Part shown: positions 931 to 20,368 of the stretch, in pieces | How positions within the stretch are numbered: the first letter of the stretch is position 1 | Layout of the letters: the number at the start of each line of letters is the position of its first letter | Virus record (IMG/VR): IMGVR_UViG_2563366803_000006 | Origin: a virus | Lineage: Duplodnaviria; Heunggongvirae; Uroviricota; Caudoviricetes | Reading direction: 5' to 3' (one strand) | Length of the DNA: 20,368 nucleotides | Position numbers and translations under genes: made by a program | Notes under the pieces: generated by a model | The model's database searches: none | What the model was told of the DNA's origin: nothing | What the model saw: only the letters and a program-made list of their open reading frames with translations

Positions 931-1020
931 TGTGTTTGTTGTTAACTCTGTCTCTTTAATTTTTGGGTGATGCTGCCAACTTACTGATTTAGTGTATGAT
1001 GGTGTTTTTGAGGTGCTCCA

Positions 1021-1296
1021 GTGGCTTCTGTTTCTATCAGCTGTCCCTCCTGTTCAGCTACTGACGGGGTGGTGCGTAACGGCAAAAGCACCGCCGGACA
1101 TCAGCGCTATCTCTGCTCTCACTGCCGTAAAACATGGCAACTGCAGTTCACTTACACCGCTTCTCAACCCGGTACGCACCAGAAAATCATTGATATGGCC
1201 ATGAATGGCGTTGGATGCCGGGCAACTGCCCGCATTATGGGCGTTGGCCTCAACACGATTTTACGTCACTTAAAAAACTCAGGCCGCAGTCGGTAA
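1021..1296 (+). CDS. insA: IS1 InsA (transposition inhibitor / DNA-binding N-terminal part of transposase)
   Basis: 91-aa [25 protein letters not shown]... with zinc-finger-like CxxC..CxxC and HTH region, GTG start, typical of IS1 InsA. Confidence 0.95.
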
Positions 1297-1718
1297 CCTC
1301 GCGCATACAGCCGGGCAGTGACGTCATCGTCTGCGCGGAAATGGACGAACAGTGGGGCTATGTCGGGGCTAAATCGCGCCAGCGCTGGCTGTTTTACGCG
1401 TATGACAGGCTCCGGAAGACGGTTGTTGCGCACGTATTCGGTGAACGCACTATGGCGACGCTGGGGCGTCTTATGAGCCTGCTGTCACCCTTTGACGTGG
1501 TGATATGGATGACGGATGGCTGGCCGCTGTATGAATCCCGCCTGAAGGGAAAGCTGCACGTAATCAGCAAGCGATATACGCAGCGAATTGAGCGGCATAA
1601 CCTGAATCTGAGGCAGCACCTGGCACGGCTGGGACGGAAGTCGCTGTCGTTTTCAAAATCGGTGGAGCTGCATGACAAAGTCATCGGGCATTATCTGAAC
1701 ATAAAACACTATCAATAA
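1215..1718 (+). CDS. insB: IS1 InsB frame (expressed as InsAB' transposase by -1 frameshift)
   Basis: 167-codon ORF in the -1 frame relative to insA, overlapping the insA 3' end; A6C slippery motif at 1272-1278. Confidence 0.9.
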
Positions 1719-1780
1719 GTTGGAGTCATTACCGCAAAGCTGTATCGCGAGGCGAATCAAGCGCAATTAAACTTTAATAG

Positions 1781-7404: not shown

Positions 7405-8329
7405 TGATTTTTGCGCCTTTATTCTGACTCACGGGCGACCGGACAAAGTTCTGACTTACCGGACGTTGCGTCGTGCTGGCTATACCGGGAAAATTTTTAT
7501 CGTTGTTGATGATGAAGATAAGACACGGCATCAGTACATGGCTGAATTTGGTGAACAGGTGCTGGTGTTTTCCAAAACCGATATCGCCAGTCGTTTTGAC
7601 GAAGCCGATAATTTCTGTGACCGCCGCTCAATTTTTTACGCCCGTAATGCCTGTTTCGACCTGGCAAAACTGGTCGGGTGTAAATACTTCATTCAGCTCG
7701 ATGATGATTATCACGAGTTCCAGTTTCGGGTGGATCGCAACTATGACCAGGCCTATTTTCCGATAAGGAAACTGGATGCGATCCTTTCTGAAATGCTGGC
7801 GTACTACGAATCAATACCTGCTCTTTCCATCGCTATGTCGCAGGGCGGGGATTTTCTTGGTGACAATGGCGGCCATGCTTCGTGGGTGAAACGCAAGGCA
7901 ATGAACAGCTTTATCTGTTCGGTTGATCGACCGTTCTCATTCATGGGGCGCATTAACGAGGATGTGAATACGTACACGAATCTCGGTCGCTGTGGTGAAT
8001 TGTTTATGACGATCGGTGCTGTCCAGTTAGGGCAGAAACAGACGCAGAAAAACAGCGGCGGAATGACCGAGCTGTATCTGGATTCCGGAACCTACGTTAA
8101 AAGTTTTTACTCCGTCATGTATGCGCCGTCGTGCGTAAAAATTTCACTGATGGGTGCCAGCCATAAACGCATTCACCATCAGGTCACCTGGAACAACGCT
8201 GCAGTAAAAATCCTTCACGAAAAATACAGGAAGAAGACACCCTGCATATCAATGGGGGTGACAAATGATTCCGTATTCGAAAGTCGAGTCTCTGGCAGCG
8301 TGCCGGATGACTGCACAACAAATCGCTGA
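7397..8329 (+). CDS. Hypothetical protein with GT-A-like nucleotide-sugar transferase signature (DxD-type)
   Basis: ATG 7397 preceded by strong SD GAGGAGGAGGAA and overlapping the ParB-like stop (translational coupling). Alternating beta-strand/acidic pattern (FILTHGRPD, IFIVVDDEDK, YFIQLDDDYHEF). Function inferred only from this pattern. Confidence 0.6.
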   Translation: MRDDFCAFILTHGRPDKVLTYRTLRRAGYTGKIFIVVDDEDKTRHQYMAEFGEQVLVFSKTDIASRFDEADNFCDRRSIFYARNACFDLAKLVGCKYFIQLDDDYHEFQFRVDRNYDQAYFPIRKLDAILSEMLAYYESIPALSIAMSQGGDFLGDNGGHASWVKRKAMNSFICSVDRPFSFMGRINEDVNTYTNLGRCGELFMTIGAVQLGQKQTQKNSGGMTELYLDSGTYVKSFYSVMYAPSCVKISLMGASHKRIHHQVTWNNAAVKILHEKYRKKTPCISMGVTNDSVFESRVSGSVPDDCTTNR

Positions 8330-8516
8330 CGTTCTGGATGTTGATCTGAACCGACTGAAAGAAAATCGGGAAGCAATGACAGATTTTTATGCGGCCATCC
8401 GTAAGGGCAGAGCGAAAGGTGAAGCCGAGTTACGAGCGGCATTGTTTAAGCTTGCCAGAAAAGGGGATGCCTTTGCTCTGCGCGAACTACTCAGGGTGGA
8501 TAAAAATCAGGACTAA
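8307..8516 (+). CDS. Small putative DNA-binding (HTH-like) protein upstream of terS
   Basis: 69 aa MTAQQIADVLDVDLNRLKENRE... helical and basic; start overlaps the upstream gene; stop is 3 nt before the terS ATG and in the same frame. Confidence 0.5.
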   Translation: MTAQQIADVLDVDLNRLKENREAMTDFYAAIRKGRAKGEAELRAALFKLARKGDAFALRELLRVDKNQD

Positions 8517-8519
8517 CTG

Positions 8520-9614
8520 ATGAGCAGACCGGACTGGGGGGCGTTGCAGCAGGAGTATATTGCTGAATACACCCGCTCCGGTATATCTCCGGTGGCATGG
8601 TGTGAAGCAAGGGGACTGAATTACGCAACAGCCCGTCGTTACATCAAAAAAACTCCGAAAAATGCGCAGACAGAAATGCGCAAAACTGCGCAAAAAAGTG
8701 CGCAGAAAAAATCTGCGCAGACTGCACAAAAGCGGAACGAAAAATCTCAGGAAAAAAAGCCAGTATTCGATGCGGGCCTGAATGAGGGCGACGCGGAGGA
8801 ATTTTCGTTCTGTCCCGATGAATTCGGCATTTCTGACCAGCAGGCTAAGTTTGCGATGCTTGTTGCTCAGGGTAAAAAGCCGACAGAGGCGTACCGACTA
8901 GCCGGTTATGAGGGGCAAGGTGCGACAGCTAACAGCAACGCCAGTCGTATGCTTAGAAATGCCAGGGTTTATCGTGCTATCAGCTACTTCCGCAATCAGT
9001 ACCAGAAACGCTATACCGCAGACCTGGATTTACTGGTGAGCCAGTTGATGGTCATTGTCCAGGCCGACCCCAATCAGTTGGCACAATTTCGCCGTGTTAA
9101 CTGCCGTTATTGCTGGGGCGAGAATCATCTCTACCAGTGGCGTGATATTGCAGAATTCGATAAGGCTGCGGCACAGGCCTCCAGAGATGGTAAACCCGAG
9201 CCGGAATATGGAGGCCTCGGCTTTGTTGATAACGCCATACCCAATCCGGATTGCCCGAAGTGCTGCGGTGAGGGAACGGGACAGCTTTATATGGCTGATA
9301 CCACACTGCTTGATGGGGATGCGCGGCAATTATATGCAGGGTCAAAGCTCGGAAAATACGGTGTTGAGATCCTGCTGGAGGATAAGGCTGCCGCCCGGCG
9401 TGAATTGTTGCGTTTGCTTTCTGCTGGCGGGGCATTATGTGCAGATAAGCGGCTACAGGAACTGGAAATTGAACGGCGCAGAATAGAAAACCAGAAGCTG
9501 CACAAAGAGATCGAAACGGTGGAAGATAATGAACATCCCCAGCCTGTGGCGATCAATATTAATGTGGTTGATGCCAGAGTAAGGAGTGATGAAGATGATC
9601 TCTCCGACGCTTAA
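8520..9614 (+). CDS. Terminase small subunit (long form with N-terminal HTH, AQK low-complexity linker, Terminase_2-like core and C-terminal Cys cluster)
   Basis: 364 aa. Core motif AYRLAGYEGQGATANSNASRMLRNARVYRAI typical of small terminase subunits; lies immediately upstream of and overlaps terL; CRYC...CPKCC cysteines at 9102-9266. Confidence 0.7.
   Translation: MSRPDWGALQQEYIAEYTRSGISPVAWCEARGLNYATARRYIKKTPKNAQTEMRKTAQKSAQKKSAQTAQKRNEKSQEKKPVFDAGLNEGDAEEFSFCPDEFGISDQQAKFAMLVAQGKKPTEAYRLAGYEGQGATANSNASRMLRNARVYRAISYFRNQYQKRYTADLDLLVSQLMVIVQADPNQLAQFRRVNCRYCWGENHLYQWRDIAEFDKAAAQASRDGKPEPEYGGLGFVDNAIPNPDCPKCCGEGTGQLYMADTTLLDGDARQLYAGSKLGKYGVEILLEDKAAARRELLRLLSAGGALCADKRLQELEIERRRIENQKLHKEIETVEDNEHPQPVAININVVDARVRSDEDDLSDA
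8663..8728. repeat. Cluster of five TGCGCA hexamers (plus one TGCACA) inside terS
   Basis: Exact TGCGCA at 8663, 8677, 8687, 8699 and 8714, each followed by an A-rich tract; encodes the AQK-repeat linker of TerS. Confidence 0.8.
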
Positions 9615-10896
9615 TGTGCCTCAGGCGCGATTTCTTTCAATGCCCCATAAATTTAAAGCCTATATTGCTGGTTTTGGCTCGGGCAAAACATGGGTTGGGT
9701 GTGGCGGCATATGCAAGGGGATTTGGGAGCATCCAGGTATAAATCAGGGATATTTTGCGCCAACGTATCCCCAAATTCGCGATATTTTTTACCCTACAGT
9801 GGAAGAAGTTGCTGCTGACTGGGGATTGAACGTAAAAATTAATGAGGGAAATAAAGAGGTTCACTTTTATTACGGACGCCAGTATCGGGGAACCACTGTC
9901 TGCAGATCGATGGAGAAGCCACAAACGATCGTCGGTTTCAAAATTGGTAATGCGTTGGTGGATGAACTGGACATTTTGCCGAAGGAAAAAGCCAGAACGG
10001 CGTGGCGCAAGATAATTGCACGTATGCGTTATAAGATTGATGGACTTCGCAACGGTATTGACGTTACAACCACGCCGGAAGGATTCAAATTTGTCTACGA
10101 GCAGTTTGTTAAAGCCGTGCGTGAAAAAACAGAGCTGGCCTCACTGTATGGTCTGGTGCAGGCATCTACTTTCGATAATGAAAAGAACCTGCCAGCAGAT
10201 TACATTCCTTCGCTTCTTGAATCATACCCTCCAGAGCTGATTAAAGCCTATCTTCGAGGACAGTTTACTAACCTGACAAGTGGTACTGTTTACCATCAGT
10301 TTGACCGGAAACTGAATAATTGCGAAGAAGTGGAGCAGCCAGGGGAGCCGATTTATATTGGGATGGATTTTAACGTTGGAAAGATGGCGGGAATCGTCCA
10401 TGTGCTGCGTTTGGGGCTTCCATGTGCGGTAACTGAAATCATCAATGCCTACGATACGCCGGATATGATCCGCATCATTAAAGAACGCTTCTGGCTGTAT
10501 GATGGGAATGATTACCGGAAAGTGAGGGAAATTTATATTTATCCAGATGCTTCCGGGGACTCCAGAAAATCAAGTAACGCAAGTACGACGGATATAGCCC
10601 AGCTTAAGCAGGCTGGTTTTAACGTTGTGGTGAACAGCTCGAACCCGCCAGTAAAAGATCGCGTTAACTCAATGAATGCAATGTTCTGCAATGCCAATGG
10701 TGAGCGTCGCTATAAAGTTAATGTGAAGCGTTGCCCGTTATATGCCGAATCTCTGGAGCAACAGGTCTGGGATGAGAAGGGGGAGCCTGATAAAAAATCT
10801 GGCAATGATCACCCGAATGATGCCGGAGGTTATTTCATCGTTAAGCAATTCCCTATTGTCAAACCGACCGGAAGAGTCACATCACTTCGGATTTAA
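9595..10896 (+). CDS. Terminase large subunit
   Basis: Walker A-like YIAGFGSGKTW near the N-terminus; C-terminal nuclease-like region; SD AAGGAG (9581-9586) 8 nt before ATG 9595. In-frame alternatives at GTG 9586 and ATG 9589. Confidence 0.9.
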   Translation: MISPTLNVPQARFLSMPHKFKAYIAGFGSGKTWVGCGGICKGIWEHPGINQGYFAPTYPQIRDIFYPTVEEVAADWGLNVKINEGNKEVHFYYGRQYRGTTVCRSMEKPQTIVGFKIGNALVDELDILPKEKARTAWRKIIARMRYKIDGLRNGIDVTTTPEGFKFVYEQFVKAVREKTELASLYGLVQASTFDNEKNLPADYIPSLLESYPPELIKAYLRGQFTNLTSGTVYHQFDRKLNNCEEVEQPGEPIYIGMDFNVGKMAGIVHVLRLGLPCAVTEIINAYDTPDMIRIIKERFWLYDGNDYRKVREIYIYPDASGDSRKSSNASTTDIAQLKQAGFNVVVNSSNPPVKDRVNSMNAMFCNANGERRYKVNVKRCPLYAESLEQQVWDEKGEPDKKSGNDHPNDAGGYFIVKQFPIVKPTGRVTSLRI

Positions 10897-10898
10897 TT

Positions 10899-12305
10899 AT
10901 GGCTGATATATCAACACCCAACCTCGACTATAACGATATGCTGGAGGCGTGGGATATTAACGACGCACTGATGGGCGGTACGCTTGAAATGCGCAGGCAG
11001 GGGGAAAATTATCTCCCAAAATGGCCTAACGAAGATGAAGACGCTTATAAAAAACGCCTGTCTGTGGCTACGCTACTTCCTGTGTATGAAGAAAGCATCA
11101 AGCAAAATATTGGGCGCATATTTGCAGAGCCGACAGTATTGAGTGAGGAAACGCCGGCAAAAATCAGGGAATATGCAGAAAATATCGACATGGAGGGGAG
11201 CCGACTGGATGTGTGGGCGCAGCAATTTTTCAGCCTCGCATTTCAGTATGGTGTGGCACATGCGCTGGTGGACTATCCACGAACGGATATGAAAGAGATT
11301 CGGACAAAAGCCGATGAAAACGCGACCGGTGGTCGTCCGTACGTTACGATGCTGAATCCACGCCAGGTTATTGGATGGAAATCGAAAGTTGAAAAAGGGA
11401 AAGTTGTTCTCACTGATTTGCGTATAAAAGAGGTCATCATTATTGATGGTGATGATTTCGGGCAGAAGAAGGTGGAGCAGATCCGCCATATTATGCCCCG
11501 TCGAGTTGAAATTTATCGACGTAGCGAAGGCACTAATGGCGAATCTGTCTGGACGCTTCATGAGTCATGGAATACCAGCCGTGATGATATTCCTCTGGTA
11601 ACACTGTACACGAAGAAAACAGGATTTATGCGTGGTACACCGCCATTGCTTAATCTTGGCTTGCTGAATATCAAGCACTGGCAAAGCCAGAGCGAGCAGG
11701 ACAATATTCTTCATGTTGCCCGCGTTCCATTGCTGGTGGCCTACGGGCTGGACAGGAATGAAGAACTGACGGTTGGTGCATCCACCGCTACGATTTTTGA
11801 GGACAGAACAAAAAATGGCCTCGAATATGTTGAACATAGTGGCGCAGCGATAGAATCTGGCGAAACATCACTTGAGAAGCTGGAAAATCAGATGCGTCAT
11901 GCCGGCGCTAAACTTCTGCGTGCTGAAAATACATCCACCAAATCTGTTGATCAGACTAATGAAGAGCGAATGCAGGAAAACTCGCCGCTTTATACAATGG
12001 CGAACTCCCTCGAAGATGCCCTCGATAATATTCTCCAGATAATGGCGGAATGGATCGGAGAGAGTTGCGGTGGCAATGTGGATGTGCGCACTGAACTGGA
12101 TGTATCTGCCCAGGTGTTTGACTCATCCTCCGCGCTGGCTGTTCAGTCATTGCGTCAGGGCGGTGATATACGTCAGATTGATGCGGTTCGGGTGTTGCAG
12201 GCGTTGAAATTTATCGATCAGGATTCCCGTCCAGAGGAAGTGATCGATGAATTAAAAAATCAGAGTGTAATGCTGATGGAAATCAATGATGCAAACCGTG
12301 AATGA
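10899..12305 (+). CDS. Portal protein
   Basis: 468 aa, directly downstream of terL; size and position in the terS-terL-portal order typical of portal proteins. Confidence 0.8.
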   Translation: MADISTPNLDYNDMLEAWDINDALMGGTLEMRRQGENYLPKWPNEDEDAYKKRLSVATLLPVYEESIKQNIGRIFAEPTVLSEETPAKIREYAENIDMEGSRLDVWAQQFFSLAFQYGVAHALVDYPRTDMKEIRTKADENATGGRPYVTMLNPRQVIGWKSKVEKGKVVLTDLRIKEVIIIDGDDFGQKKVEQIRHIMPRRVEIYRRSEGTNGESVWTLHESWNTSRDDIPLVTLYTKKTGFMRGTPPLLNLGLLNIKHWQSQSEQDNILHVARVPLLVAYGLDRNEELTVGASTATIFEDRTKNGLEYVEHSGAAIESGETSLEKLENQMRHAGAKLLRAENTSTKSVDQTNEERMQENSPLYTMANSLEDALDNILQIMAEWIGESCGGNVDVRTELDVSAQVFDSSSALAVQSLRQGGDIRQIDAVRVLQALKFIDQDSRPEEVIDELKNQSVMLMEINDANRE

Positions 12306-13401
12306 ACGGCTGCGTGATGAATCAATTGCTCATGCAGTCTGGATATCCCGCTATAGCACTGGCGTGGCTGCCAGAATGGTGAAAATACTGAATGACAGCG
12401 ATGCGGAACTTACTGCTCGCCTGCTGATAGCACTGGACAGCCTCGATCCAGGTAGTTTTACCGTTAAGCGCCTGGAGTCACTTCTGGCGAGCGTCAGAGA
12501 GGTTAACCGCACTGCTATTAACAGCATGTTTACCAGTCTCTCCGGAGAGCTGAACGAGCTGGCAATTTATGAGGCTGGTTATCAGTTAAGTCTGTTTGAT
12601 TCTATGCTACCTGATTTTGTTGCTGATGTTCACCCTCTGGTTGGTATCTCTCCTGATGCACTTTATGCCGCTGCAATGGCGCGACCATTCCAGGGACGAC
12701 TGCTCAGTGAGTGGGCCTCAGATCTTGAGGCGGATCGGCTCAGACGCATAACAAATACAGTGCGTCAGGGTTTTTTGCTGGGGGATACCAATGAGCAGAT
12801 CGCAAGAAAAATTCGGGGACATGTCAGTAAGGGATTTCAGGATGGTGCATTGCAGATGAGCCGGGCTAATGCGGCCAGCATTGCAAAAACAGCGGTTGGA
12901 CATCTTGCTGCTACTGCCCGTGAGAGTTTTGCCAGCGCGAATAATGATTTGATTAAGGGTAAGCAATGGTTATCAACGCTTGATAATCGTACTACGCCAC
13001 AATGTCGAATCAGGGATCGCCTCAAATATACGCTGAATAATAAACCTGTAGGTCACAGCGTGCCTTATTTGCAGGGGCCGGGAAAAATTCATTTCTGCTG
13101 CCGCTCAACGGAAACGTTCATTCTGAAATCAGCGAAGGAACTGGGTATTGATGTTCGCGATATTTCCCCGGCTGAGCGGGCCAGCATGGATGGCGTGGTG
13201 GCCGGAGATACAACCTACAGGGAATGGTTTTTGCGTCAGCCTTACACCAGACAAAAACAGATTGTGGGGGAAACCCGAGCAAAGCTGATTCGGGATGGTG
13301 GTATGTCGCCAGATGAATTTTACACCGATAAAGGCGAATGGCTGACGCTGAAGCAGCTCCGTGAGCGTGATGCACAGGTATTCAGAAAAGCAGGGATTTA
13401 A
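12286..13401 (+). CDS. Head morphogenesis / minor head protein (SPP1 gp7 / Mu F-like position)
   Basis: 371 aa, overlaps the portal 3' end by 20 nt; called mainly from gene order (portal, then minor head protein, then scaffold, then capsid). Confidence 0.55.
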   Translation: MMQTVNERLRDESIAHAVWISRYSTGVAARMVKILNDSDAELTARLLIALDSLDPGSFTVKRLESLLASVREVNRTAINSMFTSLSGELNELAIYEAGYQLSLFDSMLPDFVADVHPLVGISPDALYAAAMARPFQGRLLSEWASDLEADRLRRITNTVRQGFLLGDTNEQIARKIRGHVSKGFQDGALQMSRANAASIAKTAVGHLAATARESFASANNDLIKGKQWLSTLDNRTTPQCRIRDRLKYTLNNKPVGHSVPYLQGPGKIHFCCRSTETFILKSAKELGIDVRDISPAERASMDGVVAGDTTYREWFLRQPYTRQKQIVGETRAKLIRDGGMSPDEFYTDKGEWLTLKQLRERDAQVFRKAGI

Positions 13402-13420
13402 ATAAATCATTTATTACAAC

Positions 13421-13447
13421 AGGCTACCTTCGGGTGGCCTTTTTTAT
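13421..13447 (+). terminator. Intrinsic terminator between head morphogenesis and scaffold genes
   Basis: Hairpin AGGCTACC-TTCG-GGTGGCCT (one G-U pair, TTCG tetraloop) followed by TTTTTTATT. Confidence 0.7.
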
Positions 13448-13505
13448 TGCTGCGATCCGGATGGTGAGCAGCGTAACTGTCGGAAGACTTAAACCAGGTA
13501 CTAAT

Positions 13506-14270
13506 ATGAAACTGAAAACGGTCGAGATTAACGGAAAACAATACGCAGAAATTGATACTGCTGGCCTGCCAGTTTATGTGCACGACGATGGTAAAGAAAT
13601 TGGCTTCGATGCACCGCTGGCGACAAAAAAAATTACAGAGCTTAATGGCGAGGCAAAAAATCATCGCCTGGCTAAAGAAGCTGCAGAGGAAAAACTGGCT
13701 AAGTTTGCCGCTATCGAAGACCCGAAGAAGGCGATCGAGGCACTGGAAATGCTGTCAAAAATCGACCAGAAAAAGCTGCTCGATGCGGGACAGGTTGACC
13801 AGGTTAAGGCAGAAATTACGAAAAATTTTCAGCAGCAATTAGATGAAGAAAAGCAACGCTCTCAGATGCTGGAGAAGCAGCTTTACGATTCTATGATTGG
13901 CGGTAGTTTTGCGGGTTCAAAATATATTGCCGATAAAATTGCGATCCCGGCAGATTTATTACAAGCCCGCTTCGGGCAGGCATTCAAAGTGGAAGAAGGG
14001 AGGATCGTTGCTTATGACGCTTCCGGCAACAAAATTTATTCCCGCGCGAAGCCTGGCGAACTGGCGCAGTTTGATGAGGCGCTGGAGTTCCTTGTCGAAA
14101 ATTACCCTCAGAAAGACTACATCCTGAAAGCCAGTGGCAACAATGGCGGCGGCTCCCGTCCGACACAGCATGATATTGGTCAGAAAACGATGAAACGCTC
14201 TGCTTTTGATGCACTGGATGTTGCAGGTAAGCAAAACGCATTGAAAGACGGTATCACAATCGTTGATTAA
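13506..14270 (+). CDS. Scaffolding protein (putative)
   Basis: About 254 aa from ATG 13506 (MKLKTVEINGK...), highly charged and helical; lies between the head morphogenesis and capsid genes. The ORF-track start at 13434 overlaps the terminator hairpin and is less likely. Confidence 0.55.
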   Translation: MKLKTVEINGKQYAEIDTAGLPVYVHDDGKEIGFDAPLATKKITELNGEAKNHRLAKEAAEEKLAKFAAIEDPKKAIEALEMLSKIDQKKLLDAGQVDQVKAEITKNFQQQLDEEKQRSQMLEKQLYDSMIGGSFAGSKYIADKIAIPADLLQARFGQAFKVEEGRIVAYDASGNKIYSRAKPGELAQFDEALEFLVENYPQKDYILKASGNNGGGSRPTQHDIGQKTMKRSAFDALDVAGKQNALKDGITIVD

Positions 14271-14368
14271 CACATTTGTCAGCTTCCGGATGGGAGCTGG
14301 TGTCAGGGCTGGATAGCTCATTACTCCATCTATTCACAATTACGCAAATTTTTAAGGAATATTTAATT

Positions 14369-15508
14369 ATGGCTGGAAATACCCTGACCGGGTTGATCCC
14401 GACTATTTATACCGCCCTGGATGTTGTATCCCGTGAGCAGGTAGGTTTTATCCCTGCGGTAGCAAAAAACGCAAAAGCTGACGCCGCAGCAAAAGATCAG
14501 ACGGTAACCGCGCCAGTTGCGCCTGAGGCGAAAACCGAAGATATCGTACCGGGGCCGTCAGCTCCGAATACCGGTGATCAAAATATTGGCACTGTTGATG
14601 TAAAAATTACTAAATCCAAAATGGCACCGGTTAAATGGAATGGTGAAGAACAACTGGCTCTTGGCCCTTCAGGGACTTACAACACCATTCTGGCTGATCA
14701 GTTCAAGCAGGCTTTTCGCGCCCTTGCAAACGAGGTTGAGGCTGATCTTGGTGCGTTGTATTTCGGTGCTTCCCGCGCCGTGGGAACCGCAGGGACAACG
14801 CCGTTTGGTGTTAAAGATGATCTTTCTGATGCTGCTCTGGCTCGTCAGGTTCTGGAGGATAACGGCGCACCGACAACCGATCTGCAGATGGTGCTTGGCT
14901 CCACTGCCATTGCTAATTTGCGCGGAAAACAGTCTGTATTGTTTAAAGTGAATGAATCCGGCACTGAACAGCTACTGCGTGAGGGCGTGTTGGGGCGTCT
15001 GGAGGGATTCAATATTCACAGTTCGGCAGGTGTGAAACGAGCGCCAAAGGTTGCTGCAACTGGTTATCTCGTGAATGGAGAGAAAAAAGAAGGCGATGTT
15101 CTTATTTCCATTGATACTGGTTCGGGGAGTATTTCTGCAGGTCAGATTGTTACGTTCGCTGGTGATCCGAATCAGTATGTTGTGGCAGCAGCGACCAGCA
15201 ATCTGATTACTCTTGCAGCGCCCGGACTGCGTCAGGATCTGGCCGATGATACTGCCATCACAGTTGTTGGGGCCTTTACTGCAAATATGGCGTTTGATCG
15301 CAACGCGTTTCTGCTGGCATCCCGTACTCCGGCAATGCCGGAAGGTGGCGATAATGCTGATGATGTAATGAATGTTACGGACCCGATTTCAGGGATTACG
15401 TTCCAGATTGCACTGTATCGTCAGTATCGCCAGGTGCGCTATGAAGTTGGACTGGCATGGGGTGTTTCATCAGTGAAGCCGGCACATGGTTGTCTGATTC
15501 TTGGTTAA
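14369..15508 (+). CDS. Major capsid protein (putative)
   Basis: About 379 aa from ATG 14369 (SD AAGGAA upstream), MAGNTLTGLIPTIYTALDVV...; position after scaffold and followed by a terminator; size typical of a major capsid protein. Confidence 0.7.
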   Translation: MAGNTLTGLIPTIYTALDVVSREQVGFIPAVAKNAKADAAAKDQTVTAPVAPEAKTEDIVPGPSAPNTGDQNIGTVDVKITKSKMAPVKWNGEEQLALGPSGTYNTILADQFKQAFRALANEVEADLGALYFGASRAVGTAGTTPFGVKDDLSDAALARQVLEDNGAPTTDLQMVLGSTAIANLRGKQSVLFKVNESGTEQLLREGVLGRLEGFNIHSSAGVKRAPKVAATGYLVNGEKKEGDVLISIDTGSGSISAGQIVTFAGDPNQYVVAAATSNLITLAAPGLRQDLADDTAITVVGAFTANMAFDRNAFLLASRTPAMPEGGDNADDVMNVTDPISGITFQIALYRQYRQVRYEVGLAWGVSSVKPAHGCLILG

Positions 15509-15518
15509 ACATTCAAAC

Positions 15519-15538
15519 GGGGCTTCGGCCCCATTTTT
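15519..15538 (+). terminator. Intrinsic terminator after the capsid gene
   Basis: Hairpin GGGGC-TTCG-GCCCC followed by ATTTTTAA, 11 nt after the capsid stop. Confidence 0.65.
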
Positions 15539-15550
15539 AATGGGGGGCAT

Positions 15551-15727
15551 ATGGCCGGATTAACTAAAGAGCAAAGAGCACAGCGTGAAGCCGCACAAAA
15601 AACGCAAATTGAGTTAGTGGTTATGGTGACCGATTATCAGATGTTTCCCGGCGCACCAACTATCGCTAATGTTCATCCTGATGAAGTTGACAACTGGAAG
15701 GCTATGGGCTGGAAAACTCAGGAGTAA
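15551..15727 (+). CDS. Small hypothetical protein (58 aa) between capsid and connector genes
   Basis: ATG 15551 preceded by a G-rich tract; stop TAA 15725-15727 lies 3 nt before the next gene's ATG. Product MAGLTKEQRAQREAAQKTQIELVVMVTDYQMFPGAPTIANVHPDEVDNWKAMGWKTQE. Below the length cutoff of the supplied ORF track. Confidence 0.4.
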   Translation: MAGLTKEQRAQREAAQKTQIELVVMVTDYQMFPGAPTIANVHPDEVDNWKAMGWKTQE

Positions 15728-15730
15728 CAC

Positions 15731-16126
15731 ATGATCACTTACGTGACCTGTGATGACGTTGATAATGCGTTTGGGAACGCCTGGACGAGTGAGAACGCTA
15801 AAAATAAAGCTGTTTTAATGGCTAATGCCTGGCTTAATGGCTTCAACCTGAAAATTAACCCATCCCGTATTCCGGAAGAGGTAAAACTTGCGGGAGCATA
15901 TGCAGCCAGAATTGCCTCATTCGGTAAGTTGTTTCAGCAGAAAAATGATTCTGGCGTTGTTATCAGTAAAGCCGTGTCGGCTGACGGGGTCAGTGTATCG
16001 AAATCATTTTCTGAGTTGCCAGCAAACAGCACTGCATTGCTTGAACCCGATTTACAGCTTGCGATAGCACTGCTGAAACCGTACGGACTTAGTCGCTCAC
16101 AAGTCAGGGTTGTGAGGGGGGGATAA
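15731..16126 (+). CDS. Head-tail connector/adaptor protein (gp6-like, putative)
   Basis: 131 aa, SD AGGAG upstream; first gene after the capsid in a run of four small tightly packed genes. Confidence 0.5.
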   Translation: MITYVTCDDVDNAFGNAWTSENAKNKAVLMANAWLNGFNLKINPSRIPEEVKLAGAYAARIASFGKLFQQKNDSGVVISKAVSADGVSVSKSFSELPANSTALLEPDLQLAIALLKPYGLSRSQVRVVRGG

Positions 16127-16509
16127 TGGGGCTTCGTGAAGAGATTCAGTCAGAGGTTGCCGCTGCTTTTGATGAGGATTTAGCGGACGCCGTGAGTGAT
16201 TTTTCTGGTTCTTACGTTACGCACCGGCACTGGGATCCTGTGACGGAAACTGGCGGCGAATCCACCGCAATCTATACCGGGCGAGGCGTGTTGACACGTT
16301 ATAAGCTGGGCAGAATTGATGGGATTAATATTTTGCATGGTGACCTTAAATTAACCGCTCTGGTATGCGAGGTTACGGATAAACCAGCTGTCGACCATAT
16401 TATTGAGATTTATGATCCTGTATCAAGGCAGTTACAACGATACGAGGTAATTACAGCAAGTGTAGATCCTTCCGCATCAGTTTACTCTATCCAGTTAAGG
16501 AGAGCGTAA
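16126..16509 (+). CDS. Head-tail joining / head closure protein (putative)
   Basis: 127 aa; start overlaps the previous stop (TAATGG); called from position. Confidence 0.45.
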   Translation: MGLREEIQSEVAAAFDEDLADAVSDFSGSYVTHRHWDPVTETGGESTAIYTGRGVLTRYKLGRIDGINILHGDLKLTALVCEVTDKPAVDHIIEIYDPVSRQLQRYEVITASVDPSASVYSIQLRRA

Positions 16510-16890
16510 ATGGCAAAGGCATGGGATATAGAACCGTCAATATTTGCCGGGATGATTGAGGAAGATGTAGGGCTGAAGATTCGCTACATCGCTATGCAGA
16601 TTCTTACTGCTATTGATATTGCTGCTCCGGTTGATACCGGACGTTTCAGAAATAACAACCTGGTGTCGTTACAGCATCCCGATTTTGGTATATCTGATAA
16701 CGTGGATCCGAACGGTACGATTGCTGTTCAGCGTGGGATCGGGGTTATTTCGAAAGCTGCAAATTACGGGGTTATTTATATCCAGAATAACCTTCCTTAT
16801 GCAGAGGCTCTTGAAAACGGTCATTCACAACAAGCGCCAACTGGCGTGTATGCCAACGCTTTTCATGGTGTTTTACAGGCTTACAAATGA
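16510..16890 (+). CDS. Neck/tail component, HK97 gp10-like (putative)
   Basis: 126 aa; position and size; gp10-like assignment is recalled family resemblance, not a search result. Confidence 0.5.
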   Translation: MAKAWDIEPSIFAGMIEEDVGLKIRYIAMQILTAIDIAAPVDTGRFRNNNLVSLQHPDFGISDNVDPNGTIAVQRGIGVISKAANYGVIYIQNNLPYAEALENGHSQQAPTGVYANAFHGVLQAYK

Positions 16891-17279
16891 AGTTTACTGA
16901 AATCAGAAATACGGTTATTTCCAGAATGACGGCACAGACGATTATTGATGGAAAAGACGTATTGTATCCGAACGGGCCAACGTTCGATCCTTCCGGTAAG
17001 TTAATCTGGGCGCGGTTAAGTAATATTCCCGGGCAGGCTGGAGTTAATGAAATTGGCGCGGGGCCGGTTGTTTATCGCACGGGGATAATCATTATTCAGT
17101 TATTTGTCCCCGCAGGTTCTGGTTCAAAACTCATTACTGAGACAGCCGATAAATTGCGGGAACTGTTTGAGTTTCAGGATGACGATCGTCTCAGTTACCA
17201 GGCTGTTTCCTCAATAGCCGTCGGCGAAAAGAATGGCTGGTTCCAGCTTAATCTTCAAATTCCATATCGCGCGCTCTAG
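16887..17279 (+). CDS. Tail completion / tail terminator protein (putative)
   Basis: 130 aa; ATGA start-stop overlap with the previous gene; immediately upstream of the major tail protein gene. Confidence 0.45.
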   Translation: MKFTEIRNTVISRMTAQTIIDGKDVLYPNGPTFDPSGKLIWARLSNIPGQAGVNEIGAGPVVYRTGIIIIQLFVPAGSGSKLITETADKLRELFEFQDDDRLSYQAVSSIAVGEKNGWFQLNLQIPYRAL

Positions 17280-17305
17280 CGCAATTAATGACATAGGAGG
17301 CTCCT

Positions 17306-18268
17306 GTGAGTTCAGGTGCAAAGGTTATCTCGGCATTTATCCGGGAGACGGTTGCAGGCACTACGCCAGCAAGTGGTGACTGGAGTTTATTAAAACGCAC
17401 AAGCTGGGGAGTAAAACCCACCCAGAATAAAGGCGAAAATAATGAGATTGGTGGCTCCCGGATGGCTCAGGGGGCGACGCCTGGCACTGTGGATGTCGGC
17501 GGTGATGTTGGTACCAAATTTCGCTGGGGTCAACATGATGATTTTCTTGCATCCTGTTTCGGCGCGGAATGGTCAGGCGATTCTCTGACAATGGGGAATG
17601 AGCGAATAACATTTTCTCTGGCGACCTATGCGTCCGATGTCGGAATTGCCTCTGTCGTCAGAGGAGCGCAGGTTGGCTCATGGAAAATGCAGATCCCTAA
17701 CGACGGCGATATTACAGCGACCGTAACCTTTGCCGGACTGGACTGGGAATCAAAGGCCGATGATACGAATTTTATCAAAGGCGAACCTGTGGATAGTGCA
17801 GGAAAGCTACGTTATTCGTTTAAGGAGGTTTCAGCAGTAAGCCTGAATGGTGTTGCCGGAGGTAACGGTTTTTGTATCGACAGTTTTGATATTCAGTTCG
17901 ATAACAAACTCCAGACACAGCGTTGTATCGGGACTGGCTCGCCTTATGCAGGAGCAAATATTCCGACTACTTTTACACCGTCCGGTACGGTGACGCTTTC
18001 ATGGTCTAAAGCCGCGTGGGAAATCTGGAGTAAAACACTGACTGGAGAAACAGTTCCGTTCAGCTTCACGCTTTCGAATGGAGAGGGGGCATACACTTTC
18101 AGTTTCCCGAAGGTTCAGGTGTCAGGTGAATGGCCTGATGGGGGTAATAGCGACATTATCCAGGTTCAATTGAGCATTACCGCAGCAGATGAAGCACCTA
18201 CGATAACCAGAAAAAAAAATTCCCCGGCTGCCGTGATCGCAAAAGCCAGTGCTGAGGCGATTAGTTGA
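17306..18268 (+). CDS. Major tail (tube) protein (putative)
   Basis: 320 aa from GTG 17306 with strong SD AGGAGG upstream; lies immediately before the tail assembly chaperone with frameshift site, as expected for a siphovirus-type tail tube gene. Confidence 0.55.
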   Translation: MSSGAKVISAFIRETVAGTTPASGDWSLLKRTSWGVKPTQNKGENNEIGGSRMAQGATPGTVDVGGDVGTKFRWGQHDDFLASCFGAEWSGDSLTMGNERITFSLATYASDVGIASVVRGAQVGSWKMQIPNDGDITATVTFAGLDWESKADDTNFIKGEPVDSAGKLRYSFKEVSAVSLNGVAGGNGFCIDSFDIQFDNKLQTQRCIGTGSPYAGANIPTTFTPSGTVTLSWSKAAWEIWSKTLTGETVPFSFTLSNGEGAYTFSFPKVQVSGEWPDGGNSDIIQVQLSITAADEAPTITRKKNSPAAVIAKASAEAIS

Positions 18269-18316
18269 TTTTCCGTTATTCCTCCTGTGGTACTGCCCTA
18301 CAGGGGGACGCATTGA

Positions 18317-18778
18317 ATGAGGTTATGGATGTTTATTCTTAATCAGAAAATTATCATTGGTGGAGAACGCTGGTTTACGCCAATGAAGGACTTAAAACCT
18401 GTAGACGGGTTAAAACTGTTGGTGGCAAGCAGCGATAACGATCAGTATCGCTCCCGTAATGCATTAATCCGTCGCCACATTGAGAAAATGGATGCCAGTT
18501 TGCACGTCGGAACGAAGGAGTTTGATATTTCAAAGGTTTCCGAGGTGGATTCTGTTGATGATTTACTCATTGATAATGCCGCTCGTTATCTGCTGAAAGA
18601 CTGGAAAGGGGTTGGTGAACTGGTTAATGGTGTTGAGGTTGCACTGGAATATACGGCAGAACGAGGGATCGCGCTGCTCAAGCAGAATCCAGAGTTGTAC
18701 TGGCAGATCCTTGCAGAAGCAGCCAGCATCGCCCAGGGTAAAGAGCAGCAGAAGCAGGATACGATAAAAAAGCCATAG
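18317..18778 (+). CDS. Tail assembly chaperone (gpG-like)
   Basis: 153-codon ORF ending ...TIKKP with slippery heptamer A_AAA_AAG (18766-18772) 4 nt before the stop. In-frame alternative starts at 18329 and 18383. Confidence 0.6.
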   Translation: MRLWMFILNQKIIIGGERWFTPMKDLKPVDGLKLLVASSDNDQYRSRNALIRRHIEKMDASLHVGTKEFDISKVSEVDSVDDLLIDNAARYLLKDWKGVGELVNGVEVALEYTAERGIALLKQNPELYWQILAEAASIAQGKEQQKQDTIKKP

Positions 18779-18935
18779 CTGCCCAGCGGTGGTTATCGGA
18801 GTTCGGGGGAGAAAGGGGGGAAAAGGCAAGATGGAAGCGAGAAAAACTCAGGTTGCCACCGATACCGGAACCAGAAATAGACCCGGTGCTTAAGGAGTTG
18901 TTGTACGCCTATTCGGTAATATCCCGTGCCCGACG
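18766..18935 (+). pseudogene. -1 programmed frameshift extension of the tail assembly chaperone (gpGT-like), truncated by IS1 copy 2
   Basis: From the slippery site the -1 frame is open for about 55 codons (KKAIAAQRWLSEFGGERGEKARWKREKLRLPPIPEPEIDPVLKELLYAYSVISRARR) right up to the IS1 boundary at 18935. Confidence 0.55.
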
Positions 18936-18990
18936 GGTGATGCTGCCAACTTACTGATTTAGTGTATGATGGTGTTTTTGAGGTGCTCCA

Positions 18991-19266
18991 GTGGCTTCTG
19001 TTTCTATCAGCTGTCCCTCCTGTTCAGCTACTGACGGGGTGGTGCGTAACGGCAAAAGCACCGCCGGACATCAGCGCTATCTCTGCTCTCACTGCCGTAA
19101 AACATGGCAACTGCAGTTCACTTACACCGCTTCTCAACCCGGTACGCACCAGAAAATCATAGATATGGCCATGAATGGCGTTGGATGCCGGGCAACAGCC
19201 CGCATTATGGGCGTTGGCCTCAACACGATTTTACGTCACTTAAAAAACTCAGGCCGCAGTCGGTAA
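18991..19266 (+). CDS. insA: IS1 InsA
   Basis: 91-aa product identical to copy 1 InsA; both nucleotide differences are synonymous in this frame. Confidence 0.95.
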
Positions 19267-19688
19267 CCTCGCGCATACAGCCGGGCAGTGACGTCATCGT
19301 CTGCGCGGAAATGGACGAACAGTGGGGCTATGTCGGGGCTAAATCGCGCCAGCGCTGGCTGTTTTACGCGTATGACAGGCTCCGGAAGACGGTTGTTGCG
19401 CACGTATTCGGTGAACGCACTATGGCGACGCTGGGGCGTCTTATGAGCCTGCTGTCACCCTTTGACGTGGTGATATGGATGACGGATGGCTGGCCGCTGT
19501 ATGAATCCCGCCTGAAGGGAAAGCTGCACGTAATCAGCAAGCGATATACGCAGCGAATTGAGCGGCATAACCTGAATCTGAGGCAGCACCTGGCACGGCT
19601 GGGACGGAAGTCGCTGTCGTTTTCAAAATCGGTGGAGCTGCATGACAAAGTCATCGGGCATTATCTGAACATAAAACACTATCAATAA
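19185..19688 (+). CDS. insB: IS1 InsB frame (InsAB' by -1 frameshift)
   Basis: Corresponds to copy 1 coordinates 1215-1718; A6C motif at 19242-19248. In this copy the B frame stays open further upstream (to 19104) because TGA is replaced by AGA. Confidence 0.9.
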
Positions 19689-19703
19689 GTTGGAGTCATT
19701 ACC

Positions 19704-20368
19704 CTGTTGATTTAACCCTTACAAAACAATCAGGGACTGGCAATCGTTTTGTTTTACAGAACTCAGGTAATGCAGAACTACCGTTTTCTGTCAGGGTGTG
19801 GGGTTCCAGTACTCGACAAAACGTTTTTGAGGTTGGCACGTCTGCTGCGTATCTGTTTTATGCGCAAAAAACGTCAGCAGGCCAGTTGTTTGATGTAAAT
19901 GGCGCTATTAATTGCACAACGCTGAATCAGTCATCAGACCGCGACCTTAAAGACGATATTCTCGTTATCAGCGACGCGACGAAAGCAATCCGTAAAATGA
20001 ACGGATACACCTACACGCTCAGGGAAAACGGGATGCCTTATGCTGGCGTTATTGCACAGGAAGTAATGGAGGCGATACCAGAAGCTGTGGGATCGTTTAC
20101 TCATTATGGTGAAGAGTTGCAAGGTCCGACCGTTGACGGCAACGAGCTACGCGAAGAAACGCGCTATCTTAATGTTGACTACGCCGCCGTGACGGGCTTA
20201 CTTGTTCAGTTCGCCCGTGAAACAGATGATCGCGTTACCGCGCTGGAAGAGGAAAACACAACGCTACGTCAAAATCTGGCAACAGCAGACACCCGGATCA
20301 GCACTCTGGAAAATCAGGTAAGCGAACTGGTTGCACTTGTCCGGCAGTTAACAGGAAGCGAACATTGA
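19704..20368 (+). pseudogene. 3' fragment of a tail fibre/tailspike gene with C-terminal intramolecular chaperone (peptidase S74-type) domain
   Basis: Frame open from the IS1 boundary (codons from 19706) to TGA at 20366-20368. Translation contains SDRDLKDDI...YTYTL...GVIAQEVMEAIPEAV, matching the autoproteolytic chaperone domain pattern, then a coiled-coil tail. No start codon context at the 5' end. Confidence 0.7.

Follow-up and report, generated by a model that had tools for sequence, protein, structure and literature searches.

A probable programmed -1 frameshift site of a G/GT-type tail assembly chaperone, cut off next to IS1, in a Rac-like prophage

Does a slippery heptamer at the 3' end of a phage tail gene direct the programmed -1 frameshift of a G/GT-type tail assembly chaperone, and what has become of the extension in a DNA in which IS1 follows within a few dozen codons? 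Frameshifting between G and T is common to long-tailed dsDNA phages and widely conserved (PMC5009743), and a preliminary description of this locus had read it as such a case. We examined the locus in the window, meaning the whole 20,368-nt stretch of DNA that was analysed. Our reading, held with high confidence, is that the window carries the programmed -1 frameshift of a G/GT-type chaperone of a Rac-like (YdaY-family) siphovirus prophage, cut by an IS1-associated deletion or by IS1 recombination. The tail-chaperone interpretation was borne out by a match to phrog_313, a tail tube gene on the 5' side, a conserved in-phase heptamer, and a 104-codon extension in an intact relative. The comparisons presented below establish how the locus is built and what it is homologous to, that the slip site is conserved and the -1 frame coding, and where the deletion has its boundaries. 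Coordinates of the features are collected in Table 1.

Table 1. Features of the tail chaperone locus and of the IS1 junctions, in window coordinates.
Feature	Position	Strand	Basis or remark
Integrase ORF, 309 aa, apparently N-terminally shortened	1-930	minus	adjoins IS1 copy 1
IS1 copy 1, 768 bp	966..1733	+	same orientation as copy 2
Tail terminator gene	16887-17279		upstream of tail tube gene
Tail tube (major tail) protein gene	17306..18268	+	Pfam Phage_tube_2 E=9e-32; phrog_290 E=3e-112
Tail assembly chaperone G, 153 codons, YdaY family	18317..18778	+	phrog_313 E=4e-46; PF27119
AGGA, Shine-Dalgarno-like, 6 nt 5' of the heptamer	18756..18759	+	kept in 31/31 distinct enterobacterial contexts
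Slippery heptamer A_AAA_AAG, then CC; probable programmed -1 site	18766..18772	+	phase, conservation in relatives
Remnant of the T extension, 55/104 codons	18772..18935	+	identical to start of SPF_0923 T; phrog_1189 partial match
IS1 copy 2, 768 bp, left inverted repeat adjoining T	18936..19703	+	exact string search
Side tail fibre gene, last 221 codons, S74 intramolecular chaperone domain	19704..20368	+	Pfam Peptidase_S74

Reading of the sequence showed that AAAAAAG starts at a third codon position of the chaperone ORF and hence has the phase A_AAA_AAG, in the X_XXY_YYZ pattern. The ORF ends GAT ACG ATA AAA AAG CCA TAG; a single codon (CCA, 3 nt) separates the heptamer from the stop codon (18776-18778), which starts 4 nt past the final base of the heptamer, exactly the coordinates, phase, and spacing that the preliminary description had given. 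The open stretch of the -1 frame starts at 18742 and overlaps the G ORF by 37 nt; after the slip the frame is read from 18772, with the sequence AIAAQRWLSEFGGERGEKARWKREKLRLPPIPEPEIDPVLKELLYAYSVISRARR. Its phage part comprises 54 full codons and 2 nt up to 18935, the final phage base, and codon 55 is finished by the first base of IS1 with its Arg retained, in agreement with the earlier estimate of about 55 open codons before IS1. Inside the element the frame continues for six codons (VMLPTY) to a TGA at 18955-18957, both supplied by the first 22 nt of IS1, for a total of 61 codons past the slip in the window versus 104 in intact relatives. The +1 frame was also considered; it has 37 open codons past the G stop in the window and shuts immediately in the Erwinia and Acinetobacter relatives, so it was set aside as not conserved.

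The ORF that carries the heptamer lies immediately 3' of the tail tube gene, and public records start it at 18329, giving a protein of 149 aa. G alone matched phrog_313, a tail assembly chaperone family, with 158.7 bits, and the conceptual GT fusion matched the same profile with E=6e-51 (174.4 bits, profile positions 13-246 of 258). A further tail assembly chaperone profile, phrog_8233, went from E=0.008 for G to 4e-08 for GT. Through these two profiles the protein belongs to annotated tail assembly chaperone families, and T alone is assigned to phrog_1189, a family labelled 'unknown function' and built of gene-caller fragments. The precomputed Pfam match of the identical protein in public assemblies is Phage_YdaY (PF27119), and RefSeq labels the ORF 'protein YdaY' in close relatives, after the Rac prophage gene. 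In an index of public assemblies, 25,060 blocks list the identical 149-aa chaperone. No named family in the local Pfam copy scored above threshold for the chaperone (Phage_TAC_18 reached 18 bits versus a cut-off of 27), an NCBIfam search gave no match, and a search of the PDB by sequence returned no relative.

An intact version of the locus is present in the record of 'Salmonella phage SPF_0923' (ON032529), which is 99.5% identical to positions 8300-18935 of the window and 99.9% identical over 17300-18935. There the -1 frame runs for 104 codons past the slip and yields a 256-aa GT fusion. Downstream of T come a 165-nt gap and a 1077-aa tape measure gene, followed by lambda-like M, L, K, I, and J, by lom, and by a side tail fibre gene with its assembly gene. 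The same tape measure gene, with Pfam TMP_2, TMP_4, and Tape_meas_lam_C matches, follows the chaperone in 9 of the 10 genomic places listed. The comparison with intact prophages that had been proposed thus found the expected gene after the chaperone. The associated claim that the extension normally continues up to the tape measure gene holds in part: the tape measure gene does follow, but in close relatives T ends 165 nt short of it.

The interval between T and the tape measure gene has features of its own. In SPF_0923, where T stops at 10787 and the tape measure gene starts at 10953, a 10-pair hairpin with a T-run lies between them at 10907-10930, with the sequence GAAACCCACTTCGCGGTGGGTTTT TTGTTG; the corresponding region is deleted in the window. 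This hairpin looks like an intrinsic terminator or an attenuator within the tail operon. In more distant relatives from Klebsiella, Pseudomonas, and Acinetobacter (L004 and L006-L009), the interval holds 0.5-2.4 kb of small accessory genes, among others those for a membrane protein, a Rha/Arc-like regulator, and an anti-repressor. The interval is an accessory-gene insertion site, and these genes are absent from the close E. coli relatives. The SPF_0923 'complete genome' also carries sitABCD, uspF, ompN, and the gene for pyruvate-flavodoxin oxidoreductase past the tail fibre genes (ON032529.1, 28143-35262). Since these are chromosomal genes, the record is a prophage at the Rac position, excised in silico together with host flank, and not a packaged phage genome.

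Comparison across phages was carried out at two depths. The GT fusion was used as a tblastn query against 50,697 phage records, and matches extending through both frames were obtained in phages of Klebsiella (64%), Erwinia (55%), Pseudomonas (32%), and Acinetobacter (31%). A scan of IMG/VR gave 80 loci on viral contigs with 63-98% protein identity. In 79 of the 80, T lies in the -1 frame and AAAAAAG is in phase and unchanged; the lone exception, L010, has single-base deletions in two homopolymer runs. The distance from the heptamer to the 0-frame stop takes values of 3, 21, 75, or 105 nt among the 79 loci. As the heptamer is fixed while the position of the stop shifts, it is the heptamer, not the stop, that is the conserved element. 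Neither the heptamer nor the CC after it varied among 31 distinct nucleotide contexts, in which adjacent synonymous sites did vary.

Relatives at 25-57% identity place the slip at the same aligned lysine on other shift-prone sequences, namely C_GCA_AAG followed by TAA in Erwinia phage Gungnir39, G_GAA_AAG in the Pseudomonas phages, and G_GGA_AAG, the lambda heptamer, in Acinetobacter phages TCUAN1 and TRS1. In an alignment of six fusions the slip-site lysine, K152, was invariant, and the residues right after it were conserved (KAIAAQRW, KAIARFQW, KVVSLYEW). The -1 product could be aligned to the T extensions of relatives ranging from E. coli to Acinetobacter, a check that the preliminary description had proposed, and the early closure of the -1 frame that this description had named as contrary evidence was seen in no relative examined, the frame staying open for 68-116 codons past the chaperone stop in all of them. 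The substitution pattern agrees with this picture. The 87 nt that follow the G stop make 29 codons of the T frame, of which 27 vary at the third position, 11 at the first, and 8 at the second (chi-square p=5e-7). This stretch lies upstream of all the start codons chosen by gene callers, and the third-position variation within it therefore points to a -1 frame that is coding all the way from the slip site.

The locus was also set beside the definition of G/GT-type chaperones, which is said to come from Xu et al. 2004. The pair of ORFs sits between the major tail and tape measure genes, the downstream partner being deleted in the window; the second ORF overlaps the first and has no conserved start of its own, the called starts varying between records; and a conserved, in-phase, shift-prone sequence lies in the overlap, where A_AAG is kept at the aligned lysine.

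Public records present T differently, as a separate gene with its own internal start that encodes a 'hypothetical protein' of 61-77 aa, which would make the heptamer incidental. Small ORFs are indeed called in GenBank or by gene callers, at 10602-10787 in SPF_0923 (L001), at 5163-5339 in L004, and as 66- and 77-aa products elsewhere, and PHROGs keeps the T fragments as a family of their own, phrog_1189. The called starts, however, vary by record (TTG in SPF_0923) and fall approximately 45-60 codons past the slip site, whereas amino-acid conservation reaches right to the slip site and third-position variation is already present in the first 87 nt after the G stop. The heptamer also stays unchanged in 79 loci despite a shifting G stop, and the GT fusion outscores each of its parts against phrog_313. 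On this evidence we consider a separate T gene highly unlikely. A coincidence of heptamer and open -1 frame, with no recoding function, draws on the frequency of the motif: AAAAAAG occurs 9 times on both strands of the window versus 5.9 expected, 15 of 100 shuffles get to 9, and the heptamer by itself is not beyond chance expectation for the window. The only other in-phase genic copy of A_AAA_AAG, at 8753-8759 in the small terminase ORF (8520-9614), can be cited for the same view, but it served us as a negative control, and its -1 frame shuts after 8 codons, against the 104 that are open at the chaperone in intact relatives. What is beyond chance is the combination of phase, place at the 3' end of the chaperone gene, a long open -1 frame, and conservation. 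With a -1 frame that is coding by its substitution pattern, conserved across five genera, and placed as in known G/GT systems, mere coincidence is scarcely credible.

A frameshifted product might also arise before translation, if GT came mainly from transcriptional slippage in which RNA polymerase adds one A in the A6 run. A-runs promote polymerase slippage in bacteria and in IS elements (PMC5009743), the run at the chaperone is six As long, and the protein product would be nearly the same. Relatives that shift at this place with three As (G_GGA_AAG, C_GCA_AAG, G_GAA_AAG), too short for polymerase slippage, argue against this route, and it follows from these sites that the conserved element is A_AAG, a tRNA-Lys slip site of the ribosome. 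Efficient transcriptional slippage usually needs runs of more than six. We regard slippage by the polymerase as the main source of GT as very improbable, and we retain programmed ribosomal frameshifting as the reading of the locus.

Few heptamers in E. coli are as prone to shifting as A_AAA_AAG, since AAA is a better pairing partner than AAG for the single tRNA-Lys. Lambda G/GT is not known to require a downstream structure. A downstream stimulatory structure had been proposed as a check on the present site; the search was run, and none was conserved. With RNAalifold, 19 distinct relatives yielded neither a stem-loop nor a pseudoknot conserved downstream, the consensus consisting of only two 4-pair helices at -5.35 kcal/mol with a covariation term of -0.05. 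The single-sequence fold of 18766-18885 gave a weak, G-U-rich hairpin that starts at the heptamer and is no better than shuffles (z=+0.32). Neither calculation produced a dnaX-type stem-loop or pseudoknot, 5-9 nt past the heptamer and with covariation. A GCCA...UGGC pairing was rejected as an RNA structure, as it is accounted for by conserved Ala and Trp codons. On the upstream side, the AGGA 6 nt 5' of the heptamer is, from its sequence, a candidate stimulator; its conservation is confounded with Gln-Asp/Glu coding, and its spacing is shorter than the 10 nt of dnaX.

In the window, the phage sequence ends within ...CCCGACG, where the intact phage goes on TTATGCTGG. The element that takes over is IS1 by its length of 768 bp, its terminal inverted repeats (GGTGATGCTGCC... 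and ...GGAGTCATTACC), and its insA/insB ORFs, and the two copies in the window differ at 2 of 768 positions. Copy 2 lies between ...TGCCCGACG and CTGTTGATT..., and copy 1 between ...TAATTTTTG and GCAAAGCTG.... No 9-bp target duplication was found at either copy in any combination of flanks, and both therefore mark deletions or IS1-IS1 recombination and not simple insertions. A missing 9-bp duplication is the expected outcome of an IS1 adjacent deletion or of recombination between IS1 copies. A composite transposon of the form IS1-phage-IS1 was ruled out, as the outer flanks lack a target duplication.

The break removes T residues 56-104 (49 of 104), which contain 7 of the 9 invariant columns of the T part and its most conserved block. 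The right-hand edge of the deletion is the fibre remnant, which shares 94.3% identity with the 3'-terminal 665 nt of the tail fibre gene (3609 nt) of phage mEp460; megablast found no match to it (19704-20368) in SPF_0923. This resemblance to mEp460, unmatched in SPF_0923, marks the fibre tip as a mosaic exchange module. Measured on the SPF_0923 map, the missing stretch comes to approximately 12.4 kb and takes in half of T, the tape measure gene, M, L, K, I, J, lom, and approximately 80% of the side tail fibre gene. The preliminary description was right that the tape measure and distal tail genes are gone, but it understated the extent, since half of T and most of the fibre gene are lost as well. 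At the other end of the prophage, the side of IS1 copy 1 facing away from the integrase leads directly into lysis/late genes (holin at 2885, endolysin, spanin), and the entire early/immunity region seems to have been deleted too. The resulting order is int', IS1, lysis, terminase, head, tail tube, G, T', IS1, 'stf. The prophage cannot build tails, and its frameshift site is a non-functional relic.

The right IS1 junction and the whole IS1 arrangement were not found in complete E. coli genomes, nor were the exact junction patterns found in GTDB representative genomes or in IMG/VR. The DNA may come from a Shigella or from an E. coli rich in IS1. Left ends of IS1 do recur near this position. Relative to the heptamer they lie at +149 nt in E. 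coli GPEC1446, +170 in the window, and +172 in E. coli HCP6S3_I1, and two further genomes have them at +481 and +961. In all five loci compared (window 18915-18937, L003 at 6616, L091 at 4153, L029, and L092) IS1 has one and the same orientation; the right-hand junction, examined in four of them, differs each time, lying in gpM, at the side fibre C-terminus, near ydfK, and on the pinR side. The target TTCGGTAATATCCCGTGCCCGACGTTATGCTGG includes GGTAATAT, which resembles the right end of IS1, GGTAATGA, and GTTATGCTGG, which resembles its left end. IS1 has struck the same small stretch of T independently, and an IS1 hot spot or microhomology is suggested by these findings. IS1 copy 2 also has a -1 heptamer of its own, the A_AAA_AAC of insA-insB' at 19242-19248, so that two unrelated -1 signals, of the chaperone and of IS1, lie on the same strand approximately 480 nt apart.

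In an intact phage, the majority of ribosomes would halt at the TAG and release the 153-aa chaperone G. A minority would slip by -1 on A_AAA_AAG, the single E. coli tRNA-Lys re-pairing from AAG to AAA, and would translate 104 more codons to give the 256-aa GT; with a slip on the Lys codons the junction peptide would read ...QDTIKKAIAAQR. Frameshifting probably takes place at A_AAA_AAG, with an efficiency of perhaps a few percent. In lambda, G binds the tape measure protein both on its own and as part of GT, T is the binding partner of the major tail protein, and the ratio is approximately 30:1 (PMC5009743). By analogy, the G part of the present chaperone likely binds the tape measure protein and the T part likely recruits the tail tube protein, and a fixed G:GT ratio would set up tail assembly. 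The slip signal itself is intact in the window, but an IS1-associated deletion or IS1-IS1 recombination has cut away the last 49 codons of T, along with the tape measure and tail tip genes and the greater part of the fibre gene; the order of the IS1 events is one that we infer. Any frameshift product of the window would now be a 213-aa GT', with the last six residues encoded by IS1.

A residual function can be imagined for this product. The defective prophage might express G and the 213-aa GT', and GT' might poison the tail assembly of superinfecting relatives in a dominant-negative manner, as it would retain the G part that binds the tape measure protein but not the conserved half of T with which, in lambda, the tail tube protein is recruited. 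If true, this would give an exclusion role to a frameshift gene truncated by IS1 and a possible reason for the region being 99.9% intact. A recent deletion accounts for the high identity equally well, and we think such a role extremely doubtful.

The frameshift feature itself is textbook, the prophage family is a very common one, and the frameshift is already annotated in relatives. The value of the locus is mainly one of annotation. The YdaY-family ORF, present in very many E. coli assemblies, is a tail assembly chaperone, and the 'hypothetical protein' that follows a ydaY-type ORF is its -1 extension; the two should be joined, and RefSeq and GenBank entries of close relatives leave them apart. 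The prophage of the window is doubly crippled by IS1, and its frameshift relic neither challenges nor extends the current understanding of recoding.

Among known systems, the closest in layout is lambda G/GT, reportedly worked out by Levin, Hendrix and Casjens in 1993 and by Xu, Hendrix and Duda in 2004, 2013, and 2014. Both have two overlapping ORFs between the major tail and tape measure genes, a -1 slip near the end of G on an X_XXY_YYZ sequence ending in A_AAG, a T without its own start, a G of approximately 140-150 aa, and an extension of approximately 100-145 aa. They differ in that the lambda heptamer is G_GGA_AAG, 15 nt before the G stop, and the present one is A_AAA_AAG, one codon before it. 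Lambda T overlaps the start of H, whereas T ends 165 nt before the tape measure gene in the intact relative; in the window T is halved and the tape measure gene absent. Comparison of the GT alignment with lambda GT by hhalign detected no homology to lambda gpG/gpGT (probability 0.1%, E=0.55). By analogy of layout, the chaperone pair would work like lambda G/GT while standing outside the lambda sequence family.

Similarity at the sequence level is found in gp18/gp19 of Acinetobacter phage vB_AbaS_TRS1 (NC_031098), whose T part is 38.8% identical (tblastn E=4e-6). TRS1 shares the gene order and the slip at the same aligned lysine, and its chaperone is annotated as a joined frameshift CDS. It differs in having G_GGA_AAG, located 87 nt before the G stop, approximately 2.4 kb of additional genes that separate T from the tape measure gene, and an intact locus. 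The ydaY gene of the Rac prophage in E. coli K-12 (PF27119, Phage_YdaY) belongs to the same protein family as the chaperone ORF, but its annotations give a shorter ORF (119 aa) and state no function or frameshift. In the searchable literature we found no published link of ydaY to tail assembly or frameshifting.

For the slip site itself, the counterpart is E. coli dnaX (tau/gamma), which has the identical A_AAA_AAG decoded by a single tRNA-Lys (PMC5009743). In dnaX, strong stimulators are present, a Shine-Dalgarno-like element 10 nt upstream and a downstream stem-loop, and approximately 50% of ribosomes shift into a frame that stops almost at once. The chaperone has only the AGGA 6 nt upstream, no conserved downstream structure, and a long extension. 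The insA-insB' frameshift of IS1, in turn, is unrelated to that of the chaperone; at this locus IS1 is the agent of damage.
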